Shown here: positions 1,725-30,582 of the stretch, piece after piece
Layout: each line of letters opens with the position of its first letter
Numbering within the stretch: position 1 is the first letter of the stretch
DNA from: Escherichia phage 241
Sequence record: OR924452
Length of the DNA stretch: 64,000 nt
Strand: one strand, 5' to 3'
The notes under the pieces: model-generated
Seen by the model: only the letters and a program-made list of their open reading frames with translations
What the model was told of the DNA's origin: nothing
The model's database searches: none
Position numbers and translations under genes: made by a program

Positions 1725-1794
1725 CATAACAGTTCCTCAAGTCAGTTCACTTTCACTTTAAATACCTCTGCAATCACTGCGGAGGTATTTTCTT

Positions 1795-2589
1795 ATGGCC
1801 ATTCTAAAACTTGGCAACCGAGGTTCTGAAGTCAAATCACTTCAGCAAAGCCTCAATAAAATCGGGTTCTCTCTTGTAGCTGATGGCATATTTGGCAAAG
1901 CGACTGAGAATGCCGTCAAATCCGTTCAGGCAGGTGCCGGACTGGTGATTGATGGTATTGCAGGTCCAAAAACCTTCTATGCTATCCGTAATGCCGGAGA
2001 CGCTCATCAGGAACATCTTACCGAAGCCGACTTAGTTGACGCAGCGCGTGAACTTGGTATCGAACTGGCCAGCATGAAAGCTGTTAACCAGGTCGAATCT
2101 CGGGGAACGGGTTTCACCAAAACAGGTAAGATCAAAACTCTGTTCGAGCGCCACATCATGTATAAGAAAGTGGCGGCTAAATTCGGACAAGCAAGAGCCA
2201 ATGCTCTGTACCAACTCTACCCAACATTGGTTAACCCCAATTCTGGTGGCTATATCGGCGGAGACGCGGAGTTGGAACGCCTTCAGGGTGCAATCGCCCT
2301 TGATGAGGACTGCGCGTACGAGAGTGCGTCCTACGGCTTATTCCAGATCATGGGGTTCAATTGCCAGATATGTGGTTATCCGAACGCCAAAGAAATGTTC
2401 ACAGATTTTCTGACTGGTGAACGTGCACATCTTCTGGCATTTGTGAAATTCATCAAAGCTGACGCCAATATGTGGAAAGCATTGAAGAACAAAAATTGGG
2501 CCGAGTTCGCCCGTCGGTACAATGGTCCAGCATATGCCAAGAACCAGTATGACACCAAACTAGCGGCGGCATACAAGAGTTTCTGTTAA
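1795..2589 (+). CDS. endolysin: N-terminal peptidoglycan-binding domain plus C-terminal N-acetylmuramidase-type domain
   Basis: N-terminus GSEVKSLQQSLNKIGF...DGIFGKATENAV...DGIAGPKT is a PG_binding_1-type repeat; C-terminus contains YGLFQIMGFN typical of the phage muramidase family; GGAGG RBS. Confidence 0.8.
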   Translation: MAILKLGNRGSEVKSLQQSLNKIGFSLVADGIFGKATENAVKSVQAGAGLVIDGIAGPKTFYAIRNAGDAHQEHLTEADLVDAARELGIELASMKAVNQVESRGTGFTKTGKIKTLFERHIMYKKVAAKFGQARANALYQLYPTLVNPNSGGYIGGDAELERLQGAIALDEDCAYESASYGLFQIMGFNCQICGYPNAKEMFTDFLTGERAHLLAFVKFIKADANMWKALKNKNWAEFARRYNGPAYAKNQYDTKLAAAYKSFC

Positions 2590-10523: not shown

Positions 10524-11030
10524 TAGTCAATTAGAATCATGGGTTATTTATGGCGGGGATTTGAAATCTGTCGAATAGTAATATTATAGGAAGCTCTGCT
10601 TCCGTTCAACTTTATTCTTTTCGTTTCTACTCGCTGAAGCTCGTAACACCGCCTTGACAGGCAGTCCCATTCCAATGCCATGGAGGCATAAAGGCGAGGA
10701 AAATACTGTACACCTCAGAACATGCGTAGAAAAGGATTATTTTTGCTTCAAAACAAATTCAAACCCCAATTTACACAACACTTACTTCAGCAACAACGGT
10801 GTTATAGCAATTTAAGGTTAAACGTTCCTGTCTTAACCTATAAAACAGGTAAGCAAAGAAAACCCCACATTACGTGGGGTTGGAAGATTTCTTGGACAAA
10901 CGTATCTTTAGTGTCTCTGTTAGCAAATCAAGATGCCAAGGCATCGACTCGCTTATTTCAAATATGCTATAGCCATGTGCCTTTAATTCGTCACACATCA
11001 CAAAGTAGGAGAGTAAATCAATTTCAAAAA

Positions 11031-11834
11031 TTAAATGAAAATTTCAGTGACACTGTTAAATTTGACTTCATGTTCTTTCCCACACGAAGGACATTTAATT
11101 TTCGTCGCGTAACGGATACGAGGAATCTTTTTAAAGAAATCGTCGGATATATCTTGAACAATCTCAGATTCAATATTTTCCCCCACCCATTTAACAAATT
11201 CATCTTTGACACGTTGACGTTCTTTAGCAACATCAGGTGCTATGCCAGGCTCTGCCGGATTCTCTACTTTCCAAACCTGACCATCATCGTCATACAAACA
11301 ATCAATAAATGTCGCGATCATTTGCTCCACAGATGATGCTTCGTTGAGCACTGAGGCGTCCGAGAAGGACGGTTGACGCATCTTGATGTGATAGCCACCA
11401 GGGAGGTCAAATGTTTCCCTGAAGCCTTCTGGGGACACGCATTTCACTTGGTTGAGGGGGATCGGTAAAACAAGTTCTTGACCACATTCTTTAAGGCCAG
11501 AAACTGGTTCTTCACCTTCATTTGTGTCGGATGGAACTTTGTTGTTACATTTGTATCGTATCTTCATGACCTCGCCGATAGATATACAGCGCATCTTTAA
11601 AAATACTTCTTCAGTAACACCGATTGGCAGTTTACTAAAGGGAACCCCAGCGTCAACACAACTATCAAACAGTTGCTCCAGCGTCGCTACACGTTCACTC
11701 ATAGGAGTGTTCGGATCAGCAACCTGAAGTAACATGGTCTGTTGCCCTGCTGTGAAAGCGCGGTATTTAATCACCGTCGGCCAGAAATCACTTTTGTGTG
11801 TTCTCTCAGTTTTGGGCAATGATGGTAAATTCAT
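11031..11834 (-). CDS. late structural protein, probably baseplate-associated; C-terminal CPSCGKEH zinc-ribbon-like motif
   Basis: GGAGA RBS before ATG at 11834; T4-type late promoter TATAAATA about 29 nt upstream; adjacent to gp5. Confidence 0.5.
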   Translation of the reverse strand: MNLPSLPKTERTHKSDFWPTVIKYRAFTAGQQTMLLQVADPNTPMSERVATLEQLFDSCVDAGVPFSKLPIGVTEEVFLKMRCISIGEVMKIRYKCNNKVPSDTNEGEEPVSGLKECGQELVLPIPLNQVKCVSPEGFRETFDLPGGYHIKMRQPSFSDASVLNEASSVEQMIATFIDCLYDDDGQVWKVENPAEPGIAPDVAKERQRVKDEFVKWVGENIESEIVQDISDDFFKKIPRIRYATKIKCPSCGKEHEVKFNSVTEIFI

Positions 11835-11862
11835 AATGTATCTCCACGGTATATTGTAACCA

Positions 11863-11870
11863 TATTTATA
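11863..11870 (-). promoter_or_regulatory. T4-type late promoter (TATAAATA)
   Basis: Exact TATAAATA on the minus strand about 29 nt upstream of the ATG at 11834. Confidence 0.5.
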
Positions 11871-11883
11871 ATGAGGACCGAAA

Positions 11884-12408
11884 ATGCACGCGTTCTGTTT
11901 CAGTAAAGTTGGAGAACAACTTACCATTAATTATCCGGATACAAATACGGATTTCTTTGTATTGCTAACGGATTTCGCAAATAAATTGGGGATCAAGAAT
12001 ATCGCCATGACTGTGGACGATATGAAATTTGGTCGTCTGGGTGTAAAAGATTTATTGAATTACGGATTCAACGTAATCATTGTCGATCAGACATACAGCC
12101 CAATTGACGAGGAAGATGTTATTCCAGTTTGGGTTCAACGAGACATAAACACTCTGGATAAGCATTATCCCGATTGTGTCATCATTGGCGAATTAATACC
12201 ATATTTTCATAAACGTCGTCGGCTTGAATCAATTAAAAGTTATTTTCAAGATAGCGATGACGGATATAAAATGGATGTCCTTACGAGCGGTTGGGTTGTG
12301 AAGAATACCACAGGCAATGCCGACCGAATTACTTCCCGTCTTTATGAATATGTTAAAGAACGGGATTATGAACTGGAGAACAATAATGCCAAACGTAGAA
12401 CGCGCTGA
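11884..12408 (+). CDS. hypothetical protein (174 aa)
   Basis: ORF diverging from the late gene; GAGGA RBS. Confidence 0.45.
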   Translation: MHAFCFSKVGEQLTINYPDTNTDFFVLLTDFANKLGIKNIAMTVDDMKFGRLGVKDLLNYGFNVIIVDQTYSPIDEEDVIPVWVQRDINTLDKHYPDCVIIGELIPYFHKRRRLESIKSYFQDSDDGYKMDVLTSGWVVKNTTGNADRITSRLYEYVKERDYELENNNAKRRTR

Positions 12409-12871
12409 TATTCAGCAGGTACAAGACGTCATCCTTCAACGCCTCCGCGCCGTGATCACAAATGAAAAGGGAGAAATTGCGCCAGGGTTTGAAGGCGCAT
12501 TCGACAGTTTCGTTGCCGATGACCAGGGGAACCCCGTTGTACAAACGATCGCTGGCATGATTATGCTGAATAGCGAATTTATGGCCGATGGTAAAATCCA
12601 TTATTCTCCCAATCTCAGTGTTGACGGAGAATCTTTGGCTTCCGAAGTGGTTGATTTAACGGTTGCCGTTGGTGAGTTGGGTTATGTTTTGATGGTTTGC
12701 ACCGCGCATTATGTGGACGCCAACGGCCATGTGTCATATGGTGATGAAGCGCGGGGAATCAAACGTCATGTGGATACTGCGGCAGTTCTGCAACAGATCC
12801 GCCAGATGCAAGACAATATGGATTCCAAACCCCGCCTGATTTTGCCAGATAGTAAAATCGTGACAAGATAA
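12386..12871 (+). CDS. hypothetical protein (161 aa)
   Basis: GGAGA RBS before internal ATG at 12386 (track ORF starts at 12317). Confidence 0.45.
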   Translation: MPNVERADIQQVQDVILQRLRAVITNEKGEIAPGFEGAFDSFVADDQGNPVVQTIAGMIMLNSEFMADGKIHYSPNLSVDGESLASEVVDLTVAVGELGYVLMVCTAHYVDANGHVSYGDEARGIKRHVDTAAVLQQIRQMQDNMDSKPRLILPDSKIVTR

Positions 12872-12908
12872 TCCGGTCTAAATACCCATAACACAATGAA
12901 ACTTCGTT

Positions 12909-13520
12909 ATGGGTATTTTTATGAAATTTTGCGGAATCGACTATTCTTATGGCTGTCCTGCCATGTGCTTCTGGGATGATAAAGATCCTTTGGATTTTGA
13001 CCATCTTCATTTCTATGCGCATCATACTGTAGAAAAACATTGTCGTCAGGTACGGCATAACATCCTCATTTTACGCCAGCCGAAATATGAATCCCCAGAA
13101 GAACGCTTCTACAATATCTCCAAATGGGCCGAAGCTGTTCTTCTAACCGAGAAGCCTGATTTCATCACCCTTGAGGGGTACGCAATGGGCAACTCGAAGA
13201 ATTCCAATAACATATGCCAGACTGCTGAAAATACATCTTTATTGAAGCAAGCAATGCGCCGGAATAATATGGAATTCCAGATCGTTACTCCTTCTTTCGT
13301 TAAAAAGCATTTCTGTGGTAAAGGAAACGCCGATAAATTGGTAATGATCGATCATTTCGAGAAGCTGTTCAACGTTAAGATGCGTGGTATAATGGACATG
13401 TTGGACGTGAAGGATCCAAAGCCTATCGATGATCTTGTAGACTCATTCGCAAACATGGTGTCTGGACCTTACTTCATAGAAAATTATCCCGATTTCAATA
13501 GAGGTGTAAGAAATGATTAA
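12909..13520 (+). CDS. possible RuvC-like Holliday-junction resolvase
   Basis: N-terminal MKFCGIDYSYG resembles the RuvC GID motif, with a later acidic TLEGYA and C-terminal IDDLVDSFA; weak; two in-frame ATGs (12909, 12921). Confidence 0.35.
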   Translation: MGIFMKFCGIDYSYGCPAMCFWDDKDPLDFDHLHFYAHHTVEKHCRQVRHNILILRQPKYESPEERFYNISKWAEAVLLTEKPDFITLEGYAMGNSKNSNNICQTAENTSLLKQAMRRNNMEFQIVTPSFVKKHFCGKGNADKLVMIDHFEKLFNVKMRGIMDMLDVKDPKPIDDLVDSFANMVSGPYFIENYPDFNRGVRND

Positions 13521-13809
13521 TTACTGGCTGTTGGCAGATATACTGCTTTTCGCCTTGCTGTTGATAACGGCATTTATTTGGGTTAAGGGATTTCTGACAT
13601 TCCTACACTCGTTGAGCGCCATGATATCTTTCTATGCTGTGTCCCCCCATAGTGACGTCAATGTACGAGCGGCAAATCAATCTGACATGTTGGCTGAATA
13701 CGTCATGATGCGTGATAAAGCAACCAGGATCGTCCTGTTTTCTACACTGGCGGGGGCGGTTATTATATTCATACAACACGTCTTGGAGGCAACTCATGCC
13801 GTTTTATGA
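13513..13809 (+). CDS. small membrane protein (98 aa, hydrophobic)
   Basis: ORF with GAGGTG RBS; predicted TM helices. Confidence 0.4.
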   Translation: MINYWLLADILLFALLLITAFIWVKGFLTFLHSLSAMISFYAVSPHSDVNVRAANQSDMLAEYVMMRDKATRIVLFSTLAGAVIIFIQHVLEATHAVL

Positions 13810-14041
13810 TTATGCCTGTACAGGTTGTGGTAATTCTTTCAGTACCAGAAGGTCTTGTGCTGAACGCCATACGCCTGAATTAGATCCATGCGCTGAATGT
13901 GGCGGTGAAATCAAAATGGTCATTGGAGCACCAAAGATCGTATCTGGTGTCCGTGGCCCACAATCCGCACCTGATGGCTTCAAAGACGTATTGCGTCATA
14001 TTAAGAAGCAGTCTGGGAAGGGGAATACAATCGATGTCTGA
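13796..14041 (+). CDS. zinc-ribbon protein (FmdB-like CxxC...CxxC)
   Basis: MPFYDYACTGCG...CAECGG; GGAGG RBS before ATG at 13796. Confidence 0.5.
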   Translation: MPFYDYACTGCGNSFSTRRSCAERHTPELDPCAECGGEIKMVIGAPKIVSGVRGPQSAPDGFKDVLRHIKKQSGKGNTIDV

Positions 14042-14276
14042 CCAACAAATAGCACAAGTCCTTACACCTGATTCATTCTCAGAATTGGTGTTGATGCGAG
14101 CGAGCCAACGCAAGGAGTCTATTCTTGAAACGATGGCCAGTGTTTGTGAAGAGTACGACATCGAAGAGGCGAAAGTTAAGAAACTGATTACACCACCTCT
14201 CCTGTCAAGGCTAACAGCTGAATGTTCTGATGCTCGGTTGTTGAAGGGTGAATTGAAATCTAAAAAACTCATTTAA
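14034..14276 (+). CDS. hypothetical protein (80 aa)
   Basis: GAAGGGG RBS, ATG at 14034, overlaps upstream stop. Confidence 0.45.
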   Translation: MSDQQIAQVLTPDSFSELVLMRASQRKESILETMASVCEEYDIEEAKVKKLITPPLLSRLTAECSDARLLKGELKSKKLI

Positions 14277-14285
14277 GGTTGTAAC

Positions 14286-14525
14286 ATGAGCAAAGAGCAA
14301 ATTTATAAATTGTTGAAGGCGCAAGAGTATCTGCCAGGTTCTATTCGCTGGCGTCATGGTAGCCTCAACGAACATGCTGATGATATGGATCGCGTTCGTT
14401 TCACAACGCCGGAAGGTAAATCCTATGTCATCGAGTACCATACATTCTTGGAAGGTCATAAAACCTTCTCGGATGTGTACGATATTATTGAGATAGACCC
14501 AGCAAAACAAATGATTGCGGGTTAA
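14286..14525 (+). CDS. hypothetical protein (79 aa)
   Basis: ORF. Confidence 0.45.
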   Translation: MSKEQIYKLLKAQEYLPGSIRWRHGSLNEHADDMDRVRFTTPEGKSYVIEYHTFLEGHKTFSDVYDIIEIDPAKQMIAG

Positions 14526-14549
14526 CTCAATAGCAAAAGGCAGTATAAT
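14526..14549 (+). promoter_or_regulatory. putative promoter upstream of gp32 (TCAATAG box, 10 nt spacer, TATAAT)
   Basis: CTCAATAG-caaaaggcag-TATAAT, about 70 nt upstream of the gp32 ATG. Confidence 0.35.
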
Positions 14550-14621
14550 TACATCGTCGGAATAATAGACAAATACATTTACAGAATAGCCCGAAGGGGC
14601 GGATTATAGAGGAATAATAAA

Positions 14622-15659: not shown

Positions 15660-15667
15660 TTTCACTA

Positions 15668-15687
15668 AAGCCCCTTCGGGGGCTTTT
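15668..15687. terminator. bidirectional rho-independent terminator between convergent genes
   Basis: AAAGCCCCTTCGGGGGCTTTTT. Confidence 0.65.
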
Positions 15688-16631: not shown

Positions 16632-16665
16632 GATGAGGACTCCATTTAAATAATATATCTGCTGA

Positions 16666-16673
16666 TATTTATA
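16666..16673 (-). promoter_or_regulatory. T4-type late promoter (TATAAATA)
   Basis: Exact TATAAATA on the minus strand about 35 nt upstream of the proposed start at 16631. Confidence 0.5.
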
Positions 16674-16685: not shown

Positions 16686-17390
16686 ATGGCCAAGAACGCT
16701 ATGGGTGAAGAAGACCCGTTGTTGCTTCCTGCCGAGATGGACGCCCCAGAATTGGTCAAGCGTTACATCCGCAAATATCGTCAACATTTTGGACCAGAAG
16801 CGAAACGTAATATCCGTCGGTCTCACGTGTGGTTTATGGAACGCGTATCGAAAGATGCCAATTTATCCCCCAACCACATGATGAAGGCGTTTGCTGAAAA
16901 TAAACGTCCTGTTCAGGGTGTGCGCTATATTGTTGGTCGCATGTACTATTTCAAATATGATGCGCTGACCAAAGATGAACTCCCGTATTGGGATATGTAT
17001 CCTCTTGTATTCTTCTTCAATTTTGTGAAGGGTGACGGGGTAAAATTTGGGGAACGTGGTGTGACCTATCTTTATGGTCTCAACCTTCATTATTTGCCAC
17101 CAAAGCTCAGATTATTAGTGTTTGAAGATCTTATCAAGTTGAGGAACGAAAGAGCGTATCGTTCTAAAACTCGTTTGAGACTTACTTGGGATGCCCTGAA
17201 ACGGTTCGCCAATCACCCTCTATACAACCATTGTGTGAAACTGTACCGCGCTGATCAATTTCGTTCACAGCTTTATGAGATTGAGCCTCAATACTGGGAA
17301 GTTGTTTTGTTTATGCGCACTGCTCGATTCCAGAAACAGAGCCAGATGTCTGTTTGGAAAGACGCTCGTCGTAAACACAAAAATGGTTAG
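16686..17390 (+). CDS. hypothetical protein (234 aa), basic C-terminus
   Basis: AAGGAG RBS 7 nt before ATG; terminator downstream. Confidence 0.5.
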   Translation: MAKNAMGEEDPLLLPAEMDAPELVKRYIRKYRQHFGPEAKRNIRRSHVWFMERVSKDANLSPNHMMKAFAENKRPVQGVRYIVGRMYYFKYDALTKDELPYWDMYPLVFFFNFVKGDGVKFGERGVTYLYGLNLHYLPPKLRLLVFEDLIKLRNERAYRSKTRLRLTWDALKRFANHPLYNHCVKLYRADQFRSQLYEIEPQYWEVVLFMRTARFQKQSQMSVWKDARRKHKNG

Positions 17391-17396
17391 TTCTAA

Positions 17397-17430
17397 AAGC
17401 CGTTCTATGGGATAATTCGCGAACGGCTTT
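17397..17430 (+). terminator. rho-independent terminator
   Basis: AAAGCCGTTC...GAACGGCTTT hairpin with T-rich tail. Confidence 0.5.
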
Positions 17431-17452
17431 CTATAAACATGAGGTTCCATAT

Positions 17453-18184
17453 ATGTCATATCTACACAGAATTTTTGGTATTGAATTCAGTTCCAACAGC
17501 GTTCGTTATGACCGCACTCACAAAGACTCCGGCGGCAAGACTGGTTACGAACTTGGATCTCGTTTGGGGTATACTGAAGAGCGCCGCCTGAGCGAAAATT
17601 CTCTTCTCACAGCTATGGGTATTGAATTTGAATCCGAGGCTGCTTTAGATCTGGGGGATGAGGTTCGTTTTGGTAAGCCTGAAGTCTTAGAATTTGTTGA
17701 AGACTTCGTGACAGGTTATACCCATGCCGCTAACAATCGTCGCGCCGCCAATGATGCTGTTGGTAAATTTCATTTTGCTGTGAAATACCTTGCCGACAAG
17801 CGTATTCAAATGGAAGCCGAATTCAGTGAAGAAAACTTGAAAGCAGTTTTCGGAGAGACTGGCGATTTCCTGTTGACAGAAGAATCCGGCACTTCTTCCG
17901 CTCGTCATTTCTTTAGTCAACCGTTTATCGTGAAGGGATGTAAAATTCTGATTGATGAAGAACATGTTTTTGGTATTCATCCGGATGTTGTATACGATGA
18001 AGAGACGTGTCTGATCATTTCCAGATTGTTTAACAGCCTGGCGTACACTTCATATTCATTGATCGAACGCTGTATGGAAGAAGAGCATCGCCAAGTTGTT
18101 GTCAACAAAATTCGCTTACATGTTGAGCAGAATTTTAATGGATTCCATTGCGCGTCTGGTGAGATTCCAAACTTCTACATGTAA
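17453..18184 (+). CDS. hypothetical protein (243 aa)
   Basis: ORF with GAGG RBS. Confidence 0.45.
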   Translation: MSYLHRIFGIEFSSNSVRYDRTHKDSGGKTGYELGSRLGYTEERRLSENSLLTAMGIEFESEAALDLGDEVRFGKPEVLEFVEDFVTGYTHAANNRRAANDAVGKFHFAVKYLADKRIQMEAEFSEENLKAVFGETGDFLLTEESGTSSARHFFSQPFIVKGCKILIDEEHVFGIHPDVVYDEETCLIISRLFNSLAYTSYSLIERCMEEEHRQVVVNKIRLHVEQNFNGFHCASGEIPNFYM

Positions 18185-18201
18185 AGATATCAGGGGGCTG
18201 T

Positions 18202-18489
18202 ATGAAGAAATATGTTCGTCTGAACACTGTACTTGAATCAGTTATAGAATATTTCATAATGCAGCACCTCAGAGCAGAAAATGAACACGTGAGCGACGCT
18301 CTGACTTATGATCACCGGATAGTGGTTCATTCCGTCGAAATAGTGGATGACGAATTGTTGATTGCCAATGTTGAGCATGCTCTCTGGGATGAAGTGTTAG
18401 ATCAGTACGTTCAACCGAAGTTCACACAGATCGAGTTATCTGCCATGTGGCCACCTGAAACAGTTTTCAATATTGATATACAAAGTTAA
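18202..18489 (+). CDS. hypothetical protein (95 aa)
   Basis: ORF with GGGGG RBS. Confidence 0.45.
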   Translation: MKKYVRLNTVLESVIEYFIMQHLRAENEHVSDALTYDHRIVVHSVEIVDDELLIANVEHALWDEVLDQYVQPKFTQIELSAMWPPETVFNIDIQS

Positions 18490-18662
18490 TATTCACGTCA
18501 GTCCGCGCTATTCCAGCGTTCCGTTGTCTAACACAGAAGTGTTAACCAACTTTTCAATAAAAAGTGGTTTACATCTTCTAAAAAGGCAGTATATTAATGT
18601 TCCAGACGCACAGTTGAACATTAAACTGCCAAAGAAGGTTACTACACAAAAGGGTTTTTATT

Positions 18663-19622
18663 ATGTCCTATATTCTTCATATCGAGTCCGGCCTGAAATT
18701 TGAAATTGATGGTAAAACCGCTGCTGATCTTCAAGCAGAAATCAAAGGTGCAGACCTTATCATCGGCAACGTCACGTTACGCCGTATGATGGAAGGCGTC
18801 CTCCAGTCAGCCAACGGCTTTGAACTCATTGAAGGTCTGAGCCAGGAAGAGAAAGAAGAGACTCTCGAAGCTCTTGACCGCGCTGAAGCCGAAAAAGTTA
18901 AACCGACCGAAGATGCGGGGGTTAAACAGGGCGACGGTGAATCAAATCCGGTGATTGACGCCGAAGAAACGGTTGGGCAACCTGTCGGTGATCAAAATTC
19001 CCAGACCGTCGAAGACGGTTCTCTTGAAGTCAACAAAGACGGCTCCATTTCCCTGGTAGTTGAAGGCGAAGAAGTTCTTGACGAAGAAGCGCAAGTCCGT
19101 GCTGAAGAAGTTCGCCGTCGTATGCTGGGCACAACCGTTGCTGAAGCAATCGCCGACGTTGAAAATCCGAAGGATGATCAGGCTTTAGCGAACGCGAAGG
19201 CGGTTCTGGCCAAGAAATCTTCTGAAATGCGTCCTGCGTCTTCTACTGAAGAACGCAAGCGTCGTCATAACAAACGTGAAGAAATGGTTGAAGCCGCTCG
19301 TGCTTCTAACTATGGTCCAATCCTGGCGGCGGTTGAAGCAGGGGTTACTCCTGAAGTATATTTGAGTTATGTGAACCCTGATATGCGCTGGTTCCAGTTC
19401 CCTGTCACTGAATTGGCAGACGAAGCCAATCCGCATGCCCGCACTAACACCTATGTTGATCTGGCACCTATCGTTTCCGGCGGCTGGGGTTTCAGTCTGT
19501 ATGTGAATGGTAAGTCATTCACCAAGCGTCAGAAAATCAAAGAAACTGACGCTGAATCTCTGGTAAAGGCTATCAACGAATGGCTACCTCAGGCGTTGGC
19601 CGAAGCGAAAGCTGCTGCGTAA
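18663..19622 (+). CDS. acidic hypothetical protein (319 aa), codon-optimised
   Basis: ORF; E/D-rich middle region; high-expression codon usage. Confidence 0.5.
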   Translation: MSYILHIESGLKFEIDGKTAADLQAEIKGADLIIGNVTLRRMMEGVLQSANGFELIEGLSQEEKEETLEALDRAEAEKVKPTEDAGVKQGDGESNPVIDAEETVGQPVGDQNSQTVEDGSLEVNKDGSISLVVEGEEVLDEEAQVRAEEVRRRMLGTTVAEAIADVENPKDDQALANAKAVLAKKSSEMRPASSTEERKRRHNKREEMVEAARASNYGPILAAVEAGVTPEVYLSYVNPDMRWFQFPVTELADEANPHARTNTYVDLAPIVSGGWGFSLYVNGKSFTKRQKIKETDAESLVKAINEWLPQALAEAKAAA

Positions 19623-19694
19623 TTTAACTCAGAAGCATTCAATAGATGAAGGGGCTGCTATAATAGCAGCTCCTTTTGTTTATTGGAGCACACC

Positions 19695-20357
19695 ATGTCG
19701 TATTCGCTCAAAGGGTTGTTGAAGCGCCCCGTACATCTGTTTGTAAAACCACCTGCTGTCGAAGGGGAATATCCGGCACGAGGAGAGTTGTATTACGTTA
19801 AAGGCTCCAACGGTAGCGGCAAGTCCACTGTCCCTTCCTATCTGGCGGAGAATGATCCTCAGGCGTATGTCGTGACCTACAATGGCAAGATCATGCTCAC
19901 AGTTTGCCCTTCCTATAACATTATCTGTATTGGTAAATATGACAAGTCTAAGTCTAAAGGTGTTGATTCCCTGAAAGATACCGAGCAGATGTTGTTCGCC
20001 TTGTCCATTGCTGATCAGCCGGAATATCTGAAATATGACGTGTTGTTTGAAGGAATCATCCCTTCAACTTTGCTCAGCTCATGGATTCCCCGCCTGACGC
20101 GCCCACCGCGCGAATTAGTCGTGCTCTTCATGGACACCCCGCTTGAAACCTGTGTTTCCCGTGTGAAATCACGCAACGGCGGCGCAGACTTCAATGAAAG
20201 CCTGGTTGTCGAAAAGTGGGAGAGAGTTCATGACCACCGCCAACGGCATAAAGGCTTGTTCCCTACCGTTCCCGCAGGTATGATGAAGTCCAATGGCCTG
20301 ACTATAGAGCAGGCTGTTTTTGCGTTTCTCAATCGCGATTTTGGGAGTATTGATTGA
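19695..20357 (+). CDS. P-loop kinase-fold protein (candidate nucleotide or DNA-base kinase)
   Basis: Walker A GSNGSGKST; about 220 aa; TTGGAG RBS; directly upstream of the pyrimidine hydroxymethylase. Confidence 0.55.
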   Translation: MSYSLKGLLKRPVHLFVKPPAVEGEYPARGELYYVKGSNGSGKSTVPSYLAENDPQAYVVTYNGKIMLTVCPSYNIICIGKYDKSKSKGVDSLKDTEQMLFALSIADQPEYLKYDVLFEGIIPSTLLSSWIPRLTRPPRELVVLFMDTPLETCVSRVKSRNGGADFNESLVVEKWERVHDHRQRHKGLFPTVPAGMMKSNGLTIEQAVFAFLNRDFGSID

Positions 20358-21397
20358 TGGAAATTTTTGCTTTAAACAATAATGATATGCTGAAGAAGGC
20401 TGTGTTGGCCATCCGTGAACACGGCATTGAGTCAGATCCTGGCAACGCAGAGATTAACACGGACGGCACTCGTTTCATTGATGGTGTAACAATTACAGTA
20501 TCAGATCCACGTGATCGTTGGCTTTCCGTTGAAGGCCGTAACTCGTCGGCAATTGCTGCCATCGGTGAGACATTCTGGGTGTTGTCCGGACGTAATGATA
20601 TCCGTTTCCTTTCGAAAGTCTTACCCCGCGCCGCCAACTTCTCTGATGACGGTGTAACCTGGCGAGGCGCGTATGGCCCACGTCTGTACAATAATGGCCA
20701 GTTGGATAGTGTCATCAGCCGTCTGCGTAATAATCCCAACACCCGTCAGGCGTATCTCACCATCTATGATCCGGCGCTGGACTCAGATGAAGGTTTGGCC
20801 GCCCATAGTGAAACTGGAGAAGCCAAGACCAAGGACATGATCTGTAATCTTGCTCTATTGTTCAGTATAACAGAAGGGCGATTGAATATCACTGTCATTA
20901 ACCGCAGCCAAGATGTCTTGTGGGGTATGAGTTCAATCAATTTCATTGAATTCTCTATCCTGCAAGAAGTTCTGGCGAAAGTGCTGAATGTCGAAGTTGG
21001 GTATTACAAACTGTTTTCTAACAATCTTCATTATTACAACAATGAAGTTAGTCGGAAACAACTCGGGGGTATCACTAAGAAGACCAAAACTTCTTCTGGG
21101 ATGTATAATTCTTTGCTGGAATTCTCTTCAGAAAAAGTGAAGTCGCAAAAAGATATTTGTAATCTATTCCTCGGCGTGTTACATCACTGTGACATCGGCA
21201 GTGATTTTGGTAAAATCAGAGAACATCTGAAAGGATATCAAGCAGACACGGGATTGATGATGGATATGTCATATTGCCTGTGGTGTCGACTCAATGATAC
21301 CAAAATTGACAAACGCCGTATCGCTGATGACGGTCTTCGTACTGCATTACTGCATTCCTCTGTTGATCAGAAATTTATGTGGGGGTATGGCGAATGA
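20354..21397 (+). CDS. deoxypyrimidine-nucleotide hydroxymethylase (thymidylate-synthase superfamily, gp42-like) with C-terminal extension
   Basis: RQAYLTIYDP and DMICNLALLFSI...VINRSQDVLWG parallel T4 gp42 RRGIMIYTRP and DFMCTNTVQYLI...VNMRSNDVVFG, including the catalytic Cys; 347 aa vs 246 aa in T4. Confidence 0.7.
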   Translation: MMEIFALNNNDMLKKAVLAIREHGIESDPGNAEINTDGTRFIDGVTITVSDPRDRWLSVEGRNSSAIAAIGETFWVLSGRNDIRFLSKVLPRAANFSDDGVTWRGAYGPRLYNNGQLDSVISRLRNNPNTRQAYLTIYDPALDSDEGLAAHSETGEAKTKDMICNLALLFSITEGRLNITVINRSQDVLWGMSSINFIEFSILQEVLAKVLNVEVGYYKLFSNNLHYYNNEVSRKQLGGITKKTKTSSGMYNSLLEFSSEKVKSQKDICNLFLGVLHHCDIGSDFGKIREHLKGYQADTGLMMDMSYCLWCRLNDTKIDKRRIADDGLRTALLHSSVDQKFMWGYGE

Positions 21398-21963
21398 TGT
21401 ACCAGAACCTTGAATTCTTCACGGGGCGCAAGCGCTCCGGCAAGGACTTCTGTTTGGAGTCCCTGATCAGTTTTCATCATATTCAGGGTGATAAGGATAT
21501 TCGTCGTCTGTCTTTCTCAGATGAACTGCGACGTGTCGCCAATTTCATCTATCCATGGCTACCAGCGGAGGTGGAGGATGCTGTGAAGGACGTTCCATTC
21601 GTACACCCTGATAACCCCAAGGGCTTAACCCCACGGCAGATCTGGCTTCATCTGGGCAGCGATACGGGCTTGCGTTATGTACAACCAGACCTGTTCCTGT
21701 CATTCTTTAAACGATATCAACTTCCTTTGGTGGAGCAGAACCCACACGTTCATTATATCGTGAGTGATTTGCGTACCCCTCAGGAATATGAATGGGCGCT
21801 GAGCACTAAATGTCCCATCACCCGCATTTCAAAGGCGGATCGCGGTGGTATCATAGAGGATGACATTGAGGCTTTCATTGATAAGATGGAAGTTGATTAT
21901 GAATTTGTCAATCCGTTTGAAGGTTGGCAACCGTTCGTCAAATTTTATAGGGATCGGAAATGA
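21394..21963 (+). CDS. 1: deoxynucleoside monophosphate kinase (T4 gp1-like)
   Basis: P-loop FFTGRKRSGKDF matches T4 gp1 LSGVKRSGKDT; ATGA overlap with the hydroxymethylase. Confidence 0.7.
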   Translation: MMYQNLEFFTGRKRSGKDFCLESLISFHHIQGDKDIRRLSFSDELRRVANFIYPWLPAEVEDAVKDVPFVHPDNPKGLTPRQIWLHLGSDTGLRYVQPDLFLSFFKRYQLPLVEQNPHVHYIVSDLRTPQEYEWALSTKCPITRISKADRGGIIEDDIEAFIDKMEVDYEFVNPFEGWQPFVKFYRDRK

Positions 21964-22517
21964 TCACAGCAGAGCATATTAAAAGTCTGCTCGAACTTCA
22001 AAAGGCCACCAACGTGGCCTATTTTGGGGAAGAGTGGAAGAATGTATGGAGTCAGAACGCCGTCGTCAACTCCATATATCGTGAGTGGGCAGAGTTTCTT
22101 GACGAAACGACCGCCGACTGGAAGGTCTATGGTAACGATATCGGCTTCGACCGCACGAAGGCGGTCTATGAACTGGTGGACGTGGTTCACTTCATGCTGT
22201 GTTTCATCCTCGTCGATCGCACCAAAGGAGAGATCGAGGAAGAATTAGAGGAAATGTCTAAGGATAGTTATGCCATGTCTATCGTTAACGGCATAGTTGC
22301 CCACGGCGGGGTGACCTACCGCTTTGGACAGTTCATGGGCGATCCTTGCGTTCGTTCCCTGATGTATTTCCTGAGCGCGTCTTGCTCTTACGTGGGGCTG
22401 GGCGCCGAAACTTACATGCTGGCACACAAACGCAAAAATGATCGCAATCGGCTGCGTGCTGCTGGCGGTGCGAACTACGATAAGTCCGCAGAAACCCCTC
22501 TGACCCTGGAGTTCTAA
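21960..22517 (+). CDS. 56: dimeric dUTPase/dCTPase-family NTP pyrophosphatase (T4 gp56-like)
   Basis: ELVDVVHFMLCFIL aligns with T4 gp56 ELVDIFHFVLNMFV; N-terminal EW...W...E motifs; substrate cannot be assigned from sequence. Confidence 0.6.
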   Translation: MITAEHIKSLLELQKATNVAYFGEEWKNVWSQNAVVNSIYREWAEFLDETTADWKVYGNDIGFDRTKAVYELVDVVHFMLCFILVDRTKGEIEEELEEMSKDSYAMSIVNGIVAHGGVTYRFGQFMGDPCVRSLMYFLSASCSYVGLGAETYMLAHKRKNDRNRLRAAGGANYDKSAETPLTLEF

Positions 22518-23047
22518 TGTTTACAGTTGTCGTATCATATTATGCGGAACATGCCCCGCGCATGGCAGAGAACTTCGCTGAGTTTATTAAACCAGGCGGT
22601 CATGTCGTTATTGCGACCAATTTCAAGAAAGAGCCAGATGGTGCGGCTACTGTAACACAACATATTACAACCAAAGAGCCGGAAACACTTTTTAAACGCA
22701 TTGAAGATTTTGCTTTTGGCGGGGAAGAAATTCCAGAGTCATTACAGCATATCTATTTTGAAGATGCGATATATTATGTTCATGCTATACCAAAAGATGT
22801 TACAACCGAACAACTAATGTATGTTTTGAATATTGCGTTAAATTTGTCATGTGTCAACAGGGCACAGCATAATCGTTTGCGCAATATGTATTTAACAGAA
22901 CGCGGGGGTTCCGGAATCAGTGATGAAAAACTCCCGTCGGTAATGGCAATTCAAGAAGCAATTAACATATTGTCCAAGAAAGTCTTGGGCACCGATTTAT
23001 TAATCACGATCAACAAGCAAGAGGAAACGAAATGGCCGATTCATTGA
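22517..23047 (+). CDS. hypothetical protein (176 aa)
   Basis: ORF between the gp56-like gene and uvsX. Confidence 0.45.
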   Translation: MFTVVVSYYAEHAPRMAENFAEFIKPGGHVVIATNFKKEPDGAATVTQHITTKEPETLFKRIEDFAFGGEEIPESLQHIYFEDAIYYVHAIPKDVTTEQLMYVLNIALNLSCVNRAQHNRLRNMYLTERGGSGISDEKLPSVMAIQEAINILSKKVLGTDLLITINKQEETKWPIH

Positions 23048-24117
23048 TGGCTCGCATGCTCAAGACAGCAAAGAAATTGGATCCGAATGCCGAAGTGCTG
23101 TCTAAAACCGATGCGCTGAAGCCTGATATTATTTGTAGCACGGGTATTCCTATCCTGAATTTGGCCTGGTCTGGTCGTATTGATGGTGGGCTGATATCTG
23201 GTATTAAGCAGTTGGTGGGTGATTCTCGTACATTCAAAACCATGTTTGGTCTGGTAGATGTCAAGGCTTACATGGACAAGTTTCCCGACGCAATTTGTAT
23301 CTTCGCGGATTCGGAAGGCGGCGCGAATGAAAACTATTGGACGTCCATGGGTATCGACATGGATCGTGTTTTATATCTGCCGATCGAAAACGTTGAAAAG
23401 ACGAAGATCAAGCTGACTCAACTTCTGAATGATGCCCAAAAAGGCGATAAAATCATCGTCTTTATTGACTCAATCAGCCAGTTGCCGTCTACCAAAGAAG
23501 TGGATGACGCCATCGCGGGTAAAGATACACAAGATATGACCCGCGCTCGTGCTCTCAATAGTTTTTGGCGTGTCATCACTCCGTTGGTCACTGAAAAGAA
23601 ATTCGTTTTGGTGTGGATCAACTCTTATTATGATGAAATCGGGAACCAGTATGCCGAACCAAATATCAAAGGCGGTAAGCAAGGTTTCCTATCATCTAAC
23701 CAATTGTGGTTCATCACCCGTTCTCAAGTTAAGGAAGACAAAGATCTTCTGGGTTGGCAATTCACTGTTAACATCATGAAAGGCCGCTTTGTTCGTGAAA
23801 AAGCCAAGTTCCCTGTGACGGTATTGTATGAAGGCGGTATTGACCGTTGGTCTGGCATGTTGGAAATTGCACGCATGCTGGGATATGTTGATCTGGTGAG
23901 CGGTTCCTGGTATCAGCGTACAGCCAAAGGCGGGTTTGATCCAGAGAAAGAGAAGAAATATCGCAAGTCAGAGCTGGGGGATGACTTCTGGTATCCACTG
24001 CTGGAAAACCCAGATTTTGTTGACGATGTAAACAATATGTTCGGTATCTCTCAGAGTTCGGTTATGCCTGCAGATATGCTGGAGCGTCTCGATCATGTCA
24101 TCAAAACAACCGAGTAA
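23032..24117 (+). CDS. uvsX: RecA-like recombinase UvsX
   Basis: Extensive colinearity with T4 UvsX (PILNLAWSGRIDGG, VFIDSISQL, DMTRA, GYQFTVNIMKGRFVREK). Confidence 0.9.
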   Translation: MADSLMARMLKTAKKLDPNAEVLSKTDALKPDIICSTGIPILNLAWSGRIDGGLISGIKQLVGDSRTFKTMFGLVDVKAYMDKFPDAICIFADSEGGANENYWTSMGIDMDRVLYLPIENVEKTKIKLTQLLNDAQKGDKIIVFIDSISQLPSTKEVDDAIAGKDTQDMTRARALNSFWRVITPLVTEKKFVLVWINSYYDEIGNQYAEPNIKGGKQGFLSSNQLWFITRSQVKEDKDLLGWQFTVNIMKGRFVREKAKFPVTVLYEGGIDRWSGMLEIARMLGYVDLVSGSWYQRTAKGGFDPEKEKKYRKSELGDDFWYPLLENPDFVDDVNNMFGISQSSVMPADMLERLDHVIKTTE

Positions 24118-24424
24118 TATTGCAGGGGGAGGAGACTCCCCCGTTAATTACAAAATCATCGACCCTGGTTCTGATCAGTTAGCTATTATCGAAATAACGG
24201 AAGGCAAGTTCCGCGGTGTTCAATTTCGTGTAGGAAAAGTGGGTGTCCATGTAGACAATGGAGAACCTCGGTTATCCTTTACGACGGATATATTGAAGAA
24301 GCCATGGCGTTTGTTATTTGTTAATTTGAAAGAAAATGACTTGTTCACTGTGGTGTCTGGGGATATCTTAGTTGATCTGATACAGCAAAATGCTCAGGAT
24401 TACAACAAAATTTTGGTGGGGTAG
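24095..24424 (+). CDS. hypothetical protein (109 aa), in the position T4 gene 40 occupies between uvsX and 41
   Basis: ORF; positional analogy only. Confidence 0.4.
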   Translation: MSSKQPSNIAGGGDSPVNYKIIDPGSDQLAIIEITEGKFRGVQFRVGKVGVHVDNGEPRLSFTTDILKKPWRLLFVNLKENDLFTVVSGDILVDLIQQNAQDYNKILVG

Positions 24425-24430
24425 TTGCCA

Positions 24431-25855
24431 ATGTTACTCGAATCTGTCGTGCTTTCCCAATTAATCTACAATGAAGAATATCAAAGAAAGATCCAGCCGT
24501 ATTTGAAAGCCGATTATTTCGATAACGAAGGCGAGAAGATTATATTTGGTCTTATAGACCATTACACTTGCGAATATAATGCTCGTCCTTCGGTTGAAGC
24601 GCTGTCTATTATGCTGGAAAAGACTTCGCTCAACGAACACGTATTTGATCAGGCCATTTCTGCTCTTGAAAATATTAATGACAATACTTTTCATCAGGAC
24701 TGGTTAGTAAAAGAAACAGAAAGTTGGGCGCGCCAGAAAGCTGTTCATAACGCAATTAGACAAGCCGTTAACATATACGGCGATGAGAAACGCAAAGATG
24801 AGATGAACAACATCCCTACTTTGCTGCAAGAAGCCCTGGCGATTCAGTTTGATTCATATCTCGGTCACATCTATTGGGAAATGGCTGAGCAACAATACGA
24901 CCACATGAACTCTAATGAAGCGAAGATCCCTTTCGCCGTAGAGATATTCAACAAAGCAACTCGTGGTGGTGTTGGCAAGAAGACATTGAACATCGTTACA
25001 GGCGCAATCAACGCAGGTAAGACAACAACTCTGATTGATTTGGCTGCTGGTTATGCCGAGCAGGGGTTGAATGTGTTCGTATTCACCCTCGAAGTGGCCG
25101 AGAACGTCTGGCGCCACCGCCTTGATGCCCGTATGATGCGCAGGGACTTCGAGTCCTTAGAGAAGCTCTCACGGCACGAGTATATTGCCACCATACAAAA
25201 ACTGAGAACCCGTCAAGACGGTTCCATGAAGGGTGATATTGTTATCAAGGAATATCCTTCGGGCGCGGGGCATACAGGTTTGTATCGTCGCGATATTCTT
25301 GATTATGCGACTGCAACAGGAATTACGCCTGATGTTATCATCATTGACTACCTGGGGGAATCTGCGTCTTCTCGCCTTCCCGCTCACTTGATGCAAAACA
25401 CCAACGTGTATTATACATCCGTGGCGCGGGAATTCCGTGCTCTTGGGTTTGAGTTTGATTGCCCTGTTTGGACAGGCATGCAGTTTAACCGTGAAAAGCA
25501 ATCAGCAACTGATGGTGATATCAGTGACTTGGCAGACGCTATCGGTATCCCGAAGGTCGCTGACTTTATCATGGCATTTTATGCCCCAGACGAACTGGCG
25601 GCTGTTAAGAAAGCCAGAGCATCAATCTTGAAAAATCGTTATGCCAACAAGCAGAAACTCAAATCTTTCTTGTTCGGTATGGACCAAGATAAACAGATAT
25701 TGTTCGACTTGGACTGGAATGAAGTCAAACGAGACCTGACTGATGAAGAAGCCCGTTATGTTGAAAACGTGCATATCAAGCATGACTTGAATAAAACGGG
25801 GGACTCAAATGATGTTAAAAAAGCCGAGACCGTCAATAGTTGGAATTTCGGTTAA
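24431..25855 (+). CDS. 41: replicative DNA helicase (DnaB-like, gp41)
   Basis: Walker A GAINAGKTT and DnaB-like helicase blocks; ATG at 24431 (track start 24425 is TTG). Confidence 0.85.
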   Translation: MLLESVVLSQLIYNEEYQRKIQPYLKADYFDNEGEKIIFGLIDHYTCEYNARPSVEALSIMLEKTSLNEHVFDQAISALENINDNTFHQDWLVKETESWARQKAVHNAIRQAVNIYGDEKRKDEMNNIPTLLQEALAIQFDSYLGHIYWEMAEQQYDHMNSNEAKIPFAVEIFNKATRGGVGKKTLNIVTGAINAGKTTTLIDLAAGYAEQGLNVFVFTLEVAENVWRHRLDARMMRRDFESLEKLSRHEYIATIQKLRTRQDGSMKGDIVIKEYPSGAGHTGLYRRDILDYATATGITPDVIIIDYLGESASSRLPAHLMQNTNVYYTSVAREFRALGFEFDCPVWTGMQFNREKQSATDGDISDLADAIGIPKVADFIMAFYAPDELAAVKKARASILKNRYANKQKLKSFLFGMDQDKQILFDLDWNEVKRDLTDEEARYVENVHIKHDLNKTGDSNDVKKAETVNSWNFG

Positions 25856-25918
25856 CTTCAATAATGGTGGTCATAGGGTATAATCTCTATGATCTGAATA
25901 TTAACCCAGGAGCACATC

Positions 25919-26251
25919 ATGTCGGATGTTGCATTTATAGCTGACCTGATTCAGGCGGCACAACAGGTGTGCCAGTCTGGACAAACCAGTCTCAGTCTGT
26001 CTACAGAGCAGACATTGGAATTTTACAAGAATCGACGGCATTGGGGTAAGGCTGTTAAGATACATTGCGAACCAGGAGAATTGGTTCAGCTCGATCTTCC
26101 ATCTTTCCCGTTGCCAGTGCAGACCAATACTCAGGAATATTATAAAGTTGAAGGTGTCGACATTATTCCTAAGTTTGGTTTCCACAGTATCGTTTATTTC
26201 TTCCTGCGCCGTTTGGGGACCAGTATTGGCCCACTCGGTTCTCGTCATTAA
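25919..26251 (+). CDS. hypothetical protein (110 aa)
   Basis: ORF with CAGGAG RBS. Confidence 0.45.
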   Translation: MSDVAFIADLIQAAQQVCQSGQTSLSLSTEQTLEFYKNRRHWGKAVKIHCEPGELVQLDLPSFPLPVQTNTQEYYKVEGVDIIPKFGFHSIVYFFLRRLGTSIGPLGSRH

Positions 26252-26263
26252 TGAGGATATGTT

Positions 26264-26575
26264 ATGTCAGTTGAACAAATCGGGTTTTACCAACTTCCTT
26301 CTGATCCCAAGCTGCGTCAAAAGATGATGCAGACATTGGAAAATTGCCGCGCCGCCCAGATCCGTATCAAGTCTGAACAGACATTTGTTACCGAAGCTCT
26401 GGCCGAATTGGCAAAAGAAACAGGCATCAAAGCCGTTGATCTGCGCAAAGTCGTTACTGACCGCGCTGGCGGAACATACACCAAGACCATCGAGACCAGC
26501 GCCAAATACCAAGATCTCTATGAGTCTCTGTATCCTAATGCAGCGCCTGATCGCGCAGCCGATCCTCAGCCATAA
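26264..26575 (+). CDS. hypothetical protein (103 aa)
   Basis: ORF with GAGGA RBS. Confidence 0.45.
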   Translation: MSVEQIGFYQLPSDPKLRQKMMQTLENCRAAQIRIKSEQTFVTEALAELAKETGIKAVDLRKVVTDRAGGTYTKTIETSAKYQDLYESLYPNAAPDRAADPQP

Positions 26576-26586
26576 ATCCCCCAGAA

Positions 26587-26612
26587 AGCCCAACAAATTG
26601 TTGGGCTTTTTA
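26587..26612 (+). terminator. rho-independent terminator
   Basis: AGCCCAACAAATTGTTGGGCT followed by TTTTTATTT. Confidence 0.55.
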
Positions 26613-26693
26613 TTTGAAACCTTTACTTCAATAAAACATACGGCTATCATTTAACCTACTTTGAAAAGTTTCACTATATCATGAGAGGCAAAT

Positions 26694-27887: not shown

Positions 27888-28000
27888 TTCTTTTACAATT
27901 TGTTTTGAAAGCATTTGCATTCGGTCTTATCGCATGCGGAGTGATCACAGCTATGCTGTTAATCATAGCCCTGATCATCCCCTTTAAGAGGAAGAAATGA
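27884..28000 (+). CDS. small hydrophobic peptide (38 aa), below the ORF-track length cutoff
   Basis: ATGA overlap with upstream stop, GAGGAAA RBS, single TM-like segment, ends one nt before the next ATG. Confidence 0.35.
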   Translation: MILLQFVLKAFAFGLIACGVITAMLLIIALIIPFKRKK

Positions 28001-28201
28001 ATGAAGCGCGAAATTAAGGATGTGTATGATCCTGGATCTTGTTGCCCAGGACACGACAAATATCCTTCAGAAAAATATAAAAATCGTCGTTCTGTAGCTA
28101 AACGTTCCGAGGGGATAAAGAAAGAACATCGTCACGCTCGCCGTGTTAAGCGCCTTGCGTTGAAAATCGATATATTCTATTCACCTCAGGAGGATTTTTA
28201 A
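28001..28201 (+). CDS. small basic protein (66 aa)
   Basis: ORF with GAGGAAGAAA RBS. Confidence 0.35.
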   Translation: MKREIKDVYDPGSCCPGHDKYPSEKYKNRRSVAKRSEGIKKEHRHARRVKRLALKIDIFYSPQEDF

Positions 28202-28413: not shown

Positions 28414-28414
28414 A

Positions 28415-28762: not shown

Positions 28763-28817
28763 TTCAATAACTGTTTCACCCATATAATACATGGGAATTT
28801 ACAGAAGGAACACAACT

Positions 28818-29159: not shown

Positions 29160-29174
29160 TTGAGGATTATATTA

Positions 29175-30580: not shown

Positions 30581-30582
30581 AT

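Follow-up and report, generated by a model that had tools for sequence, protein, structure and literature searches.

A hairpin with a nested late-promoter motif before the RuvC-like resolvase gene of Escherichia phage 241: a probable T4-type temporal gate on translation

The window analysed here, a stretch of 64,000 nucleotides (nt) from Escherichia phage 241 (sequence record OR924452), was assigned to Kuttervirus (Ackermannviridae). It carries a stable RNA hairpin directly before ATG 12921, the start codon of a RuvC-like Holliday-junction resolvase gene. The 5' arm of the hairpin overlaps CTAAATA, a heptamer resembling the late promoters of T4-like phages, and the 3' arm contains the Shine-Dalgarno (SD) sequence of the gene. 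We propose, with a probability of roughly 0.62, that the hairpin and the nested late promoter act together as a temporal gate of the T4 type on translation of the RuvC-like gene. Late transcripts would escape the hairpin because the late-promoter motif lies in its 5' arm. The device is of a known type, proposed here for an additional phage gene, and the nested promoter is the part that was missed in a preliminary description of this hairpin. The coordinates of all features are collected in Table 1.

The core of the stem is formed by nine base pairs (bp) between ACCCATAAC (12884-12892) and GTTATGGGT (12906-12914). It is extended outward through AAAT/ATTT to a perfect 13-bp stem, where AAAT (12880-12883), a part of the promoter motif, pairs with ATTT (12915-12918). 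Two nucleotides, TT, separate the foot of the stem from ATG 12921. The folding energy of the 39-nt hairpin was -14.8 kcal/mol (z = -5.5), and 0 of 200 shuffled sequences were equally stable. The corresponding values were -10.6 kcal/mol (z = -3.6) for the 9-bp core alone and -19.3 kcal/mol (z = -2.6) for the fold of the 81-nt context. The hairpin is the sole perfect inverted repeat of at least 13 nt with a spacer of 3-30 nt in the window, and the mean number of such repeats in 100 simulated first-order Markov sequences was 0.03. A search of Rfam 15 gave no match at the gathering score; the best match over the hairpin was pntA, with 17.3 bits against a gathering score of 54 (E = 6.7). The preliminary description had claimed a stable hairpin at the start of the RuvC-like gene, and this is borne out by the folding. 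It had also placed TTTTT (12916-12920) directly 5' of ATG 12921 and an in-frame ATG within the 3' arm, and both are present in the sequence. The stem sequence that it gave was correct. Its start position, 12883, has to be revised: this is the T just 5' of the first core arm, and the stem really spans 12880-12918.

The hairpin is real and under selection. It is kept 5' of the orthologous gene in six enterobacterial genera: Kuttervirus, Taipeivirus, Agtrevirus, Limestonevirus, Miltonvirus and Nezavisimistyvirus. The pairs were compared in a manual, structure-anchored table. The first inner pair changes there from A-U to G-C in Miltonvirus and Nezavisimistyvirus, and the fourth from A-U to U-A in the relative L034. 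Agtrevirus has an extra G-C pair beside the CCC/GGG core. The outer mismatches of Kuttervirus become U-A and G-C pairs in Limestonevirus and Agtrevirus, including a C.U mismatch that is G-C in Limestonevirus. A MAFFT alignment of all genera misplaced the Agtrevirus G-C insertion; the formal count was made on a cleanly alignable subset (alignment A3). Both-sided changes were found there at 3/15 pairs, a number reached by 3/500 shuffles, and all slid controls on the same alignment gave 0. A covariance-model search recovered all of the RuvC leaders together with the leader of gene 31225. Its alignment (A4) was not used for pair counts, as palindromic minus-strand matches were mixed in. The GGG of the SD is invariant in all relatives. 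The spacing of the arms ranges across relatives from 8 to 22 nt, and the loop measures 17-22 nt in Agtrevirus and Nezavisimistyvirus. Wobble pairs that work only in plus-strand RNA were seen in Nezavisimistyvirus (U.G) and, as G.U, in Vibrio phage Kuja, in the metagenomic relative L059 and in an endolysin-leader hairpin of the window. Two distant IMG/VR relatives reconstruct the arrangement on unrelated stems. In L048 (43% protein identity), the 5' arm contains CTAAATA and the 3' arm contains GAGGG; in L059 (29% protein identity), CATAAATA is followed by a hairpin.

These comparisons also bear on the idea that the palindrome works as DNA, either as an operator for a dimeric regulator such as the FmdB-like protein encoded downstream, or as a cruciform recognised by the resolvase. 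Perfect palindromic 13-bp arms near a regulator gene and a junction-resolvase gene would suit such a role, and the palindrome also creates a minus-strand TAAATA in Agtrevirus, Limestonevirus and Nezavisimistyvirus. However, the variable arm spacing does not fit, and the arms vary by compensatory substitution and base-pair insertion while their sequence is not conserved. The wobble pairs function only as plus-strand RNA, other late genes share the architecture with different stems, and the SD is covered by the 3' arm in all enterobacterial-phage copies. A DNA-level element is accordingly considered extremely improbable.

In Dickeya phage Kamild (Limestonevirus; L011:236-960), a homing endonuclease gene has been inserted between the stop codon of the upstream open reading frame (ORF) and the RuvC promoter. 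The inserted gene is preceded by its own strong terminator-like hairpin. The RuvC promoter is kept and reads TATAAATA, and the RuvC hairpin is degraded; its folded segment has about -13 to -14 kcal/mol.

GGGT is the sole purine-rich SD candidate before ATG 12921, and the record of phage Maynard marks the ribosome-binding site at the equivalent of 12912-12914. The accessibility of this SD depends on where the RNA starts. Its unpaired probability was 0.00 for RNAs starting at 12800, 12850 and 12872, and 0.53 for RNAs starting at 12888-12892. In the computed folding, an RNA from 12890 retains 3 of the 13 nt of the 5' arm. A wider comparison was made with the near-identical genome of Escherichia phage Sa157lw, in which the SD of the RuvC-like gene is the most sequestered of 195 genes and the late-promoter motif is present at 9 of the 14 most sequestered SDs. 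Truncation of the RNA at the predicted late start raised SD accessibility by a mean of 0.21 in genes with the motif versus 0.04 in controls (Mann-Whitney p = 3e-5). In nine relatives with variant stems, truncation shifted the value from 0.00-0.22 to 0.21-0.54, the smallest shift being that of Kamild (0.22 to 0.31). In L059 it rose from 0.08 to 0.85. The possibility raised in the preliminary description, that the structure controls translation of the RuvC-like gene, fits well with the SD lying within the 3' arm and being the most tightly paired of all genes compared.

A ribosome arriving from the upstream ORF might itself open the helix. In such translational coupling, the ribosome ending that ORF would melt the outer pairs, and translation of the RuvC-like gene on the long mRNA would depend on upstream translation. 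The distance from stop codon to stem is about 6-10 nt in all genera (by eye), and a terminating ribosome would be expected to cover roughly the outer 5-7 pairs. On the other hand, the inner pairs CCATAAC/GTTATGG would still hold the SD, and the short distance may reflect genome compaction only. Coupling also explains neither the retention of the promoter motif nor the base bias at -12, outside the stem, that is described below. We regard it as very unlikely.

The start codon of the RuvC-like gene was examined by comparison with relatives. The Pfam RuvC match of the product scored 22.7 bits (cut-off 22.2) and the PHROG 159 match 7e-54. The N-terminal GID motif with the catalytic Asp is present, and G5 and D7 are invariant in an alignment of eight relatives. 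The N-terminus MK(F/Y)CGIDYS is common to all relatives and starts at the equivalent of 12921. ATG 12909 is ACG in Miltonvirus, is absent in Nezavisimistyvirus and lies 13 nt, out of frame, from the ATG in Agtrevirus; it was rejected as a start. ATG 12921 is therefore taken as the start codon, because the N-terminus is conserved there and ATG 12909 is not conserved. The records MH427377, NC_027119, AB797215, MG428991, HE600015 and NC_049384 place the start of the RuvC-like gene four codons too early, at ATG 12909. The loop sequence (C)ATGAAAC (12895-12901), which is similar to ATGAAAT at the real start, is shared by Kuttervirus, Taipeivirus, Agtrevirus and Limestonevirus. A small ORF from the loop ATG 12896 was also rejected: it has 27, 14 or 9 codons in different genera (by eye), its frame varies, and it is absent in Miltonvirus.

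The promoter half of the proposal rests on the placement of CTAAATA, which has only 3 copies in the window. The placement was tested on the whole Sa157lw genome, assembled from its annotated record and 99.8% identical to the window. TAAATA was found 15-60 nt 5' of a start codon on the same strand in 27 of its 68 occurrences against 2.0 expected (p = 5e-24), and CTAAATA in 15 of 24 against 0.7 expected. Control A+T-rich hexamers were enriched at most about threefold. The genes preceded by the motif are mostly late ones: tailspikes, neck gp14, sheath, scaffold gp22, gp5, gp26, gp54, gp2, gp48, gp6 and uvsW. In Kuttervirus, 27 sites of (C/A/T)TAAATA lie 21-49 nt before start codons, with C commonest at -12. 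The base before TAAATA was C at 16, A at 7, T at 4 and G at 1 (tally by eye), and the RuvC site has the majority form. Its distance to the ATG, 36 nt, is the same as that of gp48. The C at 12878, which would occupy -12, stands outside the 13-bp stem. Thus, (C/A/T)TAAATA appears to be the late-gene upstream signal of this lineage, and CTAAATA at 12878-12884 most likely serves as a late promoter that overlaps the 5' arm. The exact T4 consensus TATAAATA was rejected as an informative motif, since its 3 occurrences in the window are not above chance.

Published and annotated promoters are in line with this assignment. The T4 late-promoter element occupies -13 to -6, and CTAAATA is the late-promoter consensus of phage Aeh1 (Nolan et al., PMC1524935). 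For ViI-like phages, the CBA120 paper of 2011 described the late-promoter sequence as not yet identified (PMC3184105), and the promoter searches in the AG3 and LIMEstone1 papers used the T4 consensus. The GenBank record of LIMEstone1 gives the homologous TAAATA 5' of ruvC the label 'putative late promoter' and has no terminator at this site. Its late-promoter list has G, C, T and A before TAAATA and includes two GTAAATA promoters, one of which is conserved between genera.

Gates of this type are known from T4. On the long early and middle transcripts of e, soc, 49 and I-TevI, a helix covers the ribosome-binding site, and late transcripts start within the DNA encoding the 5' strand of the helix and get translated (PMC3014915; PMC2988022). 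Gene 49 is listed among the T4 genes so controlled (PMC3014915). Its leader is the closest counterpart in several respects. Both leaders precede the Holliday-junction resolvase gene of the phage. The late motif lies in the 5' arm, as AATAAATA in T4 and TCTAAATA here, a GGG-type SD lies in the 3' arm, and the ATG stands at the foot of the stem. Both also contain AAATACCC...GGGTATTT as their core. By contrast, the proteins are unrelated, being endonuclease VII in T4 and a protein of the RuvC fold here. The T4-type stem has about 19 pairs, a 5-nt loop and -23.4 kcal/mol, whereas 13 pairs, a 13-nt loop and -14.8 kcal/mol are found here. The T4 gate was experimentally tested, and the Kuttervirus gate is predicted from sequence. 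The gene 49 leader of the Tequatrovirus WilhelmHis (L077:355-403) was used for the folding comparison. It contains AATAAATACCCTTATC..GGTAAGGGTATTTATTATG, in full form AATAAATACCCTTATC-TATTT-AAGGTAAGGGTATTTATT-ATG, and for an RNA beginning at the late +1 its SD accessibility is 0.56 instead of 0.00. The gene 49 product of WilhelmHis is 100% identical to the query sequence that we take to be endonuclease VII. T4 gene 49 reportedly also yields a shorter protein from an internal start.

The leaders of T4 e, soc, I-TevI and segB and of Aeh1 mobE follow the same logic, with late genes placed within early or middle units. They differ in belonging to genes of Straboviridae, whereas the present ones belong to Ackermannviridae and mostly have CTAAATA rather than TATAAATA. 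The late promoters of Aeh1 have the same heptamer, CTAAATA, with C at -12, 5' of orthologues of T4 late genes (PMC1524935); Aeh1 is, however, a T4-like phage of another family. The likeness between the T4-type and Kuttervirus leaders is probably forced, because TAAATA complements an A/U spacer of the ideal length of 6 nt and CCC complements the SD. With such overlapping constraints, convergence is probably likelier than common descent of the leader.

The proposed gate would operate as follows. Before the late period, RNA from the two upstream genes (11884-12871) would cross the site and fold into the 13-bp helix. The helix would bury GGGT and end 2 nt before ATG 12921, so that ribosomes would be blocked on the RuvC-like gene. 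The downstream genes for the membrane protein, the FmdB-like protein and gp33 would retain their own ribosome-binding sites on this RNA, and the U-rich tail may stop a fraction of polymerases. Later, gp55, gp33 and the sliding clamp would redirect RNA polymerase to start near 12890 from CTAAATA. The late mRNA, with 3 nt of the 5' arm, would form no helix and would offer an open ribosome-binding site, from which the resolvase would be made. The junction-cutting nuclease would then appear only late, when branched replicating DNA needs resolving for packaging, as with T4 endonuclease VII. Pre-late read-through, a gp55-dependent start near 12890, a block of the 30S subunit in vivo and lateness of the RuvC-like protein are all predictions of this model.

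The same module was found elsewhere, first of all at an endolysin gene of the window (Pfam Muramidase 4e-58, with PG_binding_1). Its leader hairpin folds at -17.5 kcal/mol (z -6.6). This gene is the analogue of T4 gene e, a lysis gene among early genes with the same gate module. The 5' arm shows a CT/TC swap between the window and Sa157lw, with pairing kept by a G.U pair. A scan of IMG/VR with the pattern TAAATACCC-N8-25-GGGTATTT-N0-4-ATG gave at least 120 contig stretches (L079-L198), with 92 distinct modules among the matches listed. Many of the modules in the matches listed come from marine metagenomes (for example L100:3315, L091:1380, L082:3941 and L089). The -12 base lies outside the stem in 81 of the 92, yet it is A in 56, C in 28, T in 5 and G in 3 of the modules in the matches listed. 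The 5' element is therefore read as a promoter and not as a mere complement of the U-tract, because the -12 base is biased though it stands outside the stem. Ten downstream proteins were compared with Pfam, and a UvsW helicase, a GH24 lysozyme, a SegE-type GIY-YIG endonuclease and an SNase-like nuclease were identified. One I-TevI-like match was sub-threshold, and two of the ten that look neck-like by eye had no Pfam match. The classes gated in T4, lysozyme and homing endonucleases, overlap with these downstream genes.

A more general reading can be put forward tentatively, and we hold it to be possible at best. The leaders may represent a widespread, nearly sequence-forced cassette of about 45 nt in gp55-using phages, xxTAAATA-CC(C)...(G)GG-TATTT(T)n-ATG. 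Its hexamer would complement the spacer between SD and AUG, its C-run would complement the SD, and its U-rich spacer would double as a terminator tail. The cassette would silence or stop incoming transcription and restart it late. It would be preferred for enzymes that are dangerous early, such as resolvases, lysins and homing or other nucleases, and would have been kept or re-invented across the swap between endonuclease VII and RuvC-like resolvases.

Several observations weigh against the gate at the RuvC-like gene. GGGT is only a moderate SD. In Kuja, the hairpin covers the SD and a promoter-like TATAAATC lies upstream of the hairpin; truncation does not open the SD there (0.02 to 0.03). 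The gate design is absent at the orthologous leader of Vibrio phages D533 and K476. GTAAATA, the form of the motif in Agtrevirus and Limestonevirus, is the only variant without enrichment in Kuttervirus (1/12). For the upstream genes, a promoter scan yielded no convincing candidate of the early or middle type, and read-through is assumed from the gene packing. A literature search found no transcriptome, transcript-end, start-site or protein-timing study of Ackermannviridae. In addition, the module occurs between late structural genes (tailspikes, and neck-like genes in metagenomic contigs), where a need for timing is not obvious. A pure-T tail follows GGGTATTT in 50 of the 92 distinct IMG/VR modules among the matches listed, which points to an additional or alternative terminator role of the generic module.

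The last two observations also favour a reading in which the hairpin is mainly a Rho-independent terminator, an attenuator or a 3'-end stabiliser for the two upstream genes, the promoter serves only to start transcription anew, and the ribosome-binding site is masked incidentally. ATTTTT follows the stem in Kuttervirus and Taipeivirus, many of the IMG/VR modules among the matches listed have short loops of 4-8 nt, and the AG3 homologue of the endolysin-leader hairpin was published as terminator Torf098. As in bidirectional terminators with an A-tract and a U-tract, the flanks AAATA and TATTT(TT) could extend the stem by A-U pairing. The present hairpin differs from these in its long loop, its A-U-rich stem, its unconserved tail and its 5' flank, xCTAAATA, which is not an A-run. 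With a 13-nt loop and only 3 G-C pairs (of 9 or 13), it departs from the short-loop, G+C-rich stem of a terminator, and a consensus scan made no terminator call at the hairpin. The curators of Maynard, AG3 and LIMEstone1 annotated none here. The T-run is broken in four of the six genera, where the tail is ATTTAC, ATTTCT or ATTTATC, while pairing, SD position and promoter are all kept. Moreover, the G-rich arm with the SD was the 3' arm in 7/7 hairpin-type late leaders (informal count by eye). Finally, gp33, which is required for late transcription, lies downstream with no intergenic promoter space between it and the RuvC-like gene. Efficient termination would therefore cut gp33 off from any upstream pre-late promoter. 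For these reasons a mainly terminating function is considered unlikely. The preliminary description had offered termination of the upstream operon as its other possibility; for this copy it is the weaker one, given the loop, the G-C content, the scan and the broken T-run, and partial termination is possible. Both of its options may be partly true: the module would shield the gene from transcription coming in, and a late restart would be made from the nested promoter. A terminator for the minus strand was rejected: that strand has no T-run after the hairpin and, upstream as far as the bidirectional terminator at 15667-15686, no gene.

The genomic setting is compact. Over 11800-14600, the window shares 99.8% identity with Sa157lw and 99.5% with Salmonella phage Vi01, and the gene order around the RuvC-like gene is identical across all enterobacterial Ackermannviridae genera. 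A gap of 49 nt separates the upstream same-strand ORF from ATG 12921; its stop codon, TAA, is at 12869-12871, and 8 nt lie between stop and stem. The gene for gp33, the late-transcription co-activator, occupies 14034-14276 (Pfam Trans_coact 4.6e-19) and is followed by a 79-amino-acid ORF and then gp32, on the plus strand. Besides gp33, the phage encodes gp55 and gp45, by the annotation of the 99.8%-identical Sa157lw genome. The baseplate genes gp26 and gp5 lie on the minus strand, divergent from the plus-strand block. The divergent gap between gp26 (minus) and ORF 11884 (plus), 49 nt at 11835-11883, contains the gp26 late promoter, TATAAATA. No convincing candidate for a plus-strand promoter was found in this gap; a TATAAT there is too near the SD. 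In MH427377, the Sa157lw record, the RuvC-like gene is labelled 'base plate hub subunit' and the membrane-protein gene 13513-13809 is omitted.

Table 1. Features of the gated leader, its surroundings and related sites in the 64,000-nt window.
Feature	Position	Strand	Remarks
RuvC-like Holliday-junction resolvase gene, 199 amino acids	12921-13520	+	N-terminus MKFCGIDYS; Pfam RuvC, PHROG 159
In-frame ATG, not the start	12909-12911	+	Inside 3' arm; used by many GenBank records
SD-like GGGT	12911-12914	+	About 6-7 nt before ATG; fully paired in read-through RNA
5' arm, AAATACCCATAAC	12880-12892	+	13 nt, 100% complementary to 3' arm
Loop, ACAATGAAACTTC	12893-12905	+	13 nt; contains (C)ATGAAAC
3' arm, GTTATGGGTATTT	12906-12918	+	Perfect 13-bp stem with 5' arm
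ATTTTT	12915-12920	+	SD-to-ATG spacer; possible U-tract of a weak terminator
CTAAATA, putative -12 to -6 element of a T4-type (gp55) late promoter	12878-12884	+	Overlaps the outer five pairs of the 5' arm
Predicted late transcription start	12890	+	6 nt past the last A of the motif, by the T4 -13 to -6 rule
Other late-promoter motif sites	10545-10552, 11863-11870, 16666-16673, 38127-38133	-	Also about 16640-16660 on +
Two ORFs of unknown function	11884-12408, 12386-12871	+	Upstream of the RuvC-like gene
Upstream ORF, 161 amino acids	12386-12871	+	PHROG 3801; presumed source of read-through RNA with both arms
Genes for membrane protein, FmdB-like zinc ribbon and gp33	13513-14276	+	Overlap each other and the end of the RuvC-like gene
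Endolysin gene	1795-2589		ATG 1795; Pfam Muramidase and PG_binding_1; among primase, PhoH and nrdAB genes
Endolysin-leader module	TTAAATA 1758-1764; arms 1760-1772 and 1778-1790		GGAGG in 3' arm

Two further leaders of the window resemble the module in part. In the DNA ligase leader (30591-30639), a 14-bp hairpin, GTCTCTGGGGTTAT / ATAACCCTGGAGAC, buries a GGAG SD, and a sigma-70-type TATAAT ends the 5' arm. This leader may follow the same start-inside-the-hairpin logic with a host-type promoter. At 19649-19675, a strong terminator-like hairpin, AAGGGGCTGCTAT/ATAGCAGCTCCTT, is followed by TTTGTTTATT and has TATAAT in its loop, just 5' of a gene start; in AG3, a promoter as well as a terminator was published for the corresponding site. 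The window is about 1.3 kb longer than Sa157lw (MH427377) between gp2 and the ligase gene, roughly at 17000-30600, and the ligase leader at 30591 lies about 1.3 kb beyond the position predicted from Sa157lw coordinates.

The analysis corrects the start codon of the RuvC-like gene in many GenBank records. It also carries a lesson for annotation, that such hairpins are not to be taken for plain terminators. The leader design could possibly be used in the engineering of phage gene timing. For the Ackermannviridae, (C/A/T)TAAATA is provided as a testable consensus for the late promoter that the 2011 CBA120 paper had described as unidentified. Phages of the Vi01/CBA120 type are used in the biocontrol of Salmonella and E. 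coli O157. If the proposed gate is true, these phages could delay a junction-cutting nuclease and an endolysin despite the early-gene surroundings of both. Unrelated resolvases, and lysins as well, would then stand under one leader design in two phage families, by regulatory convergence or by retention.

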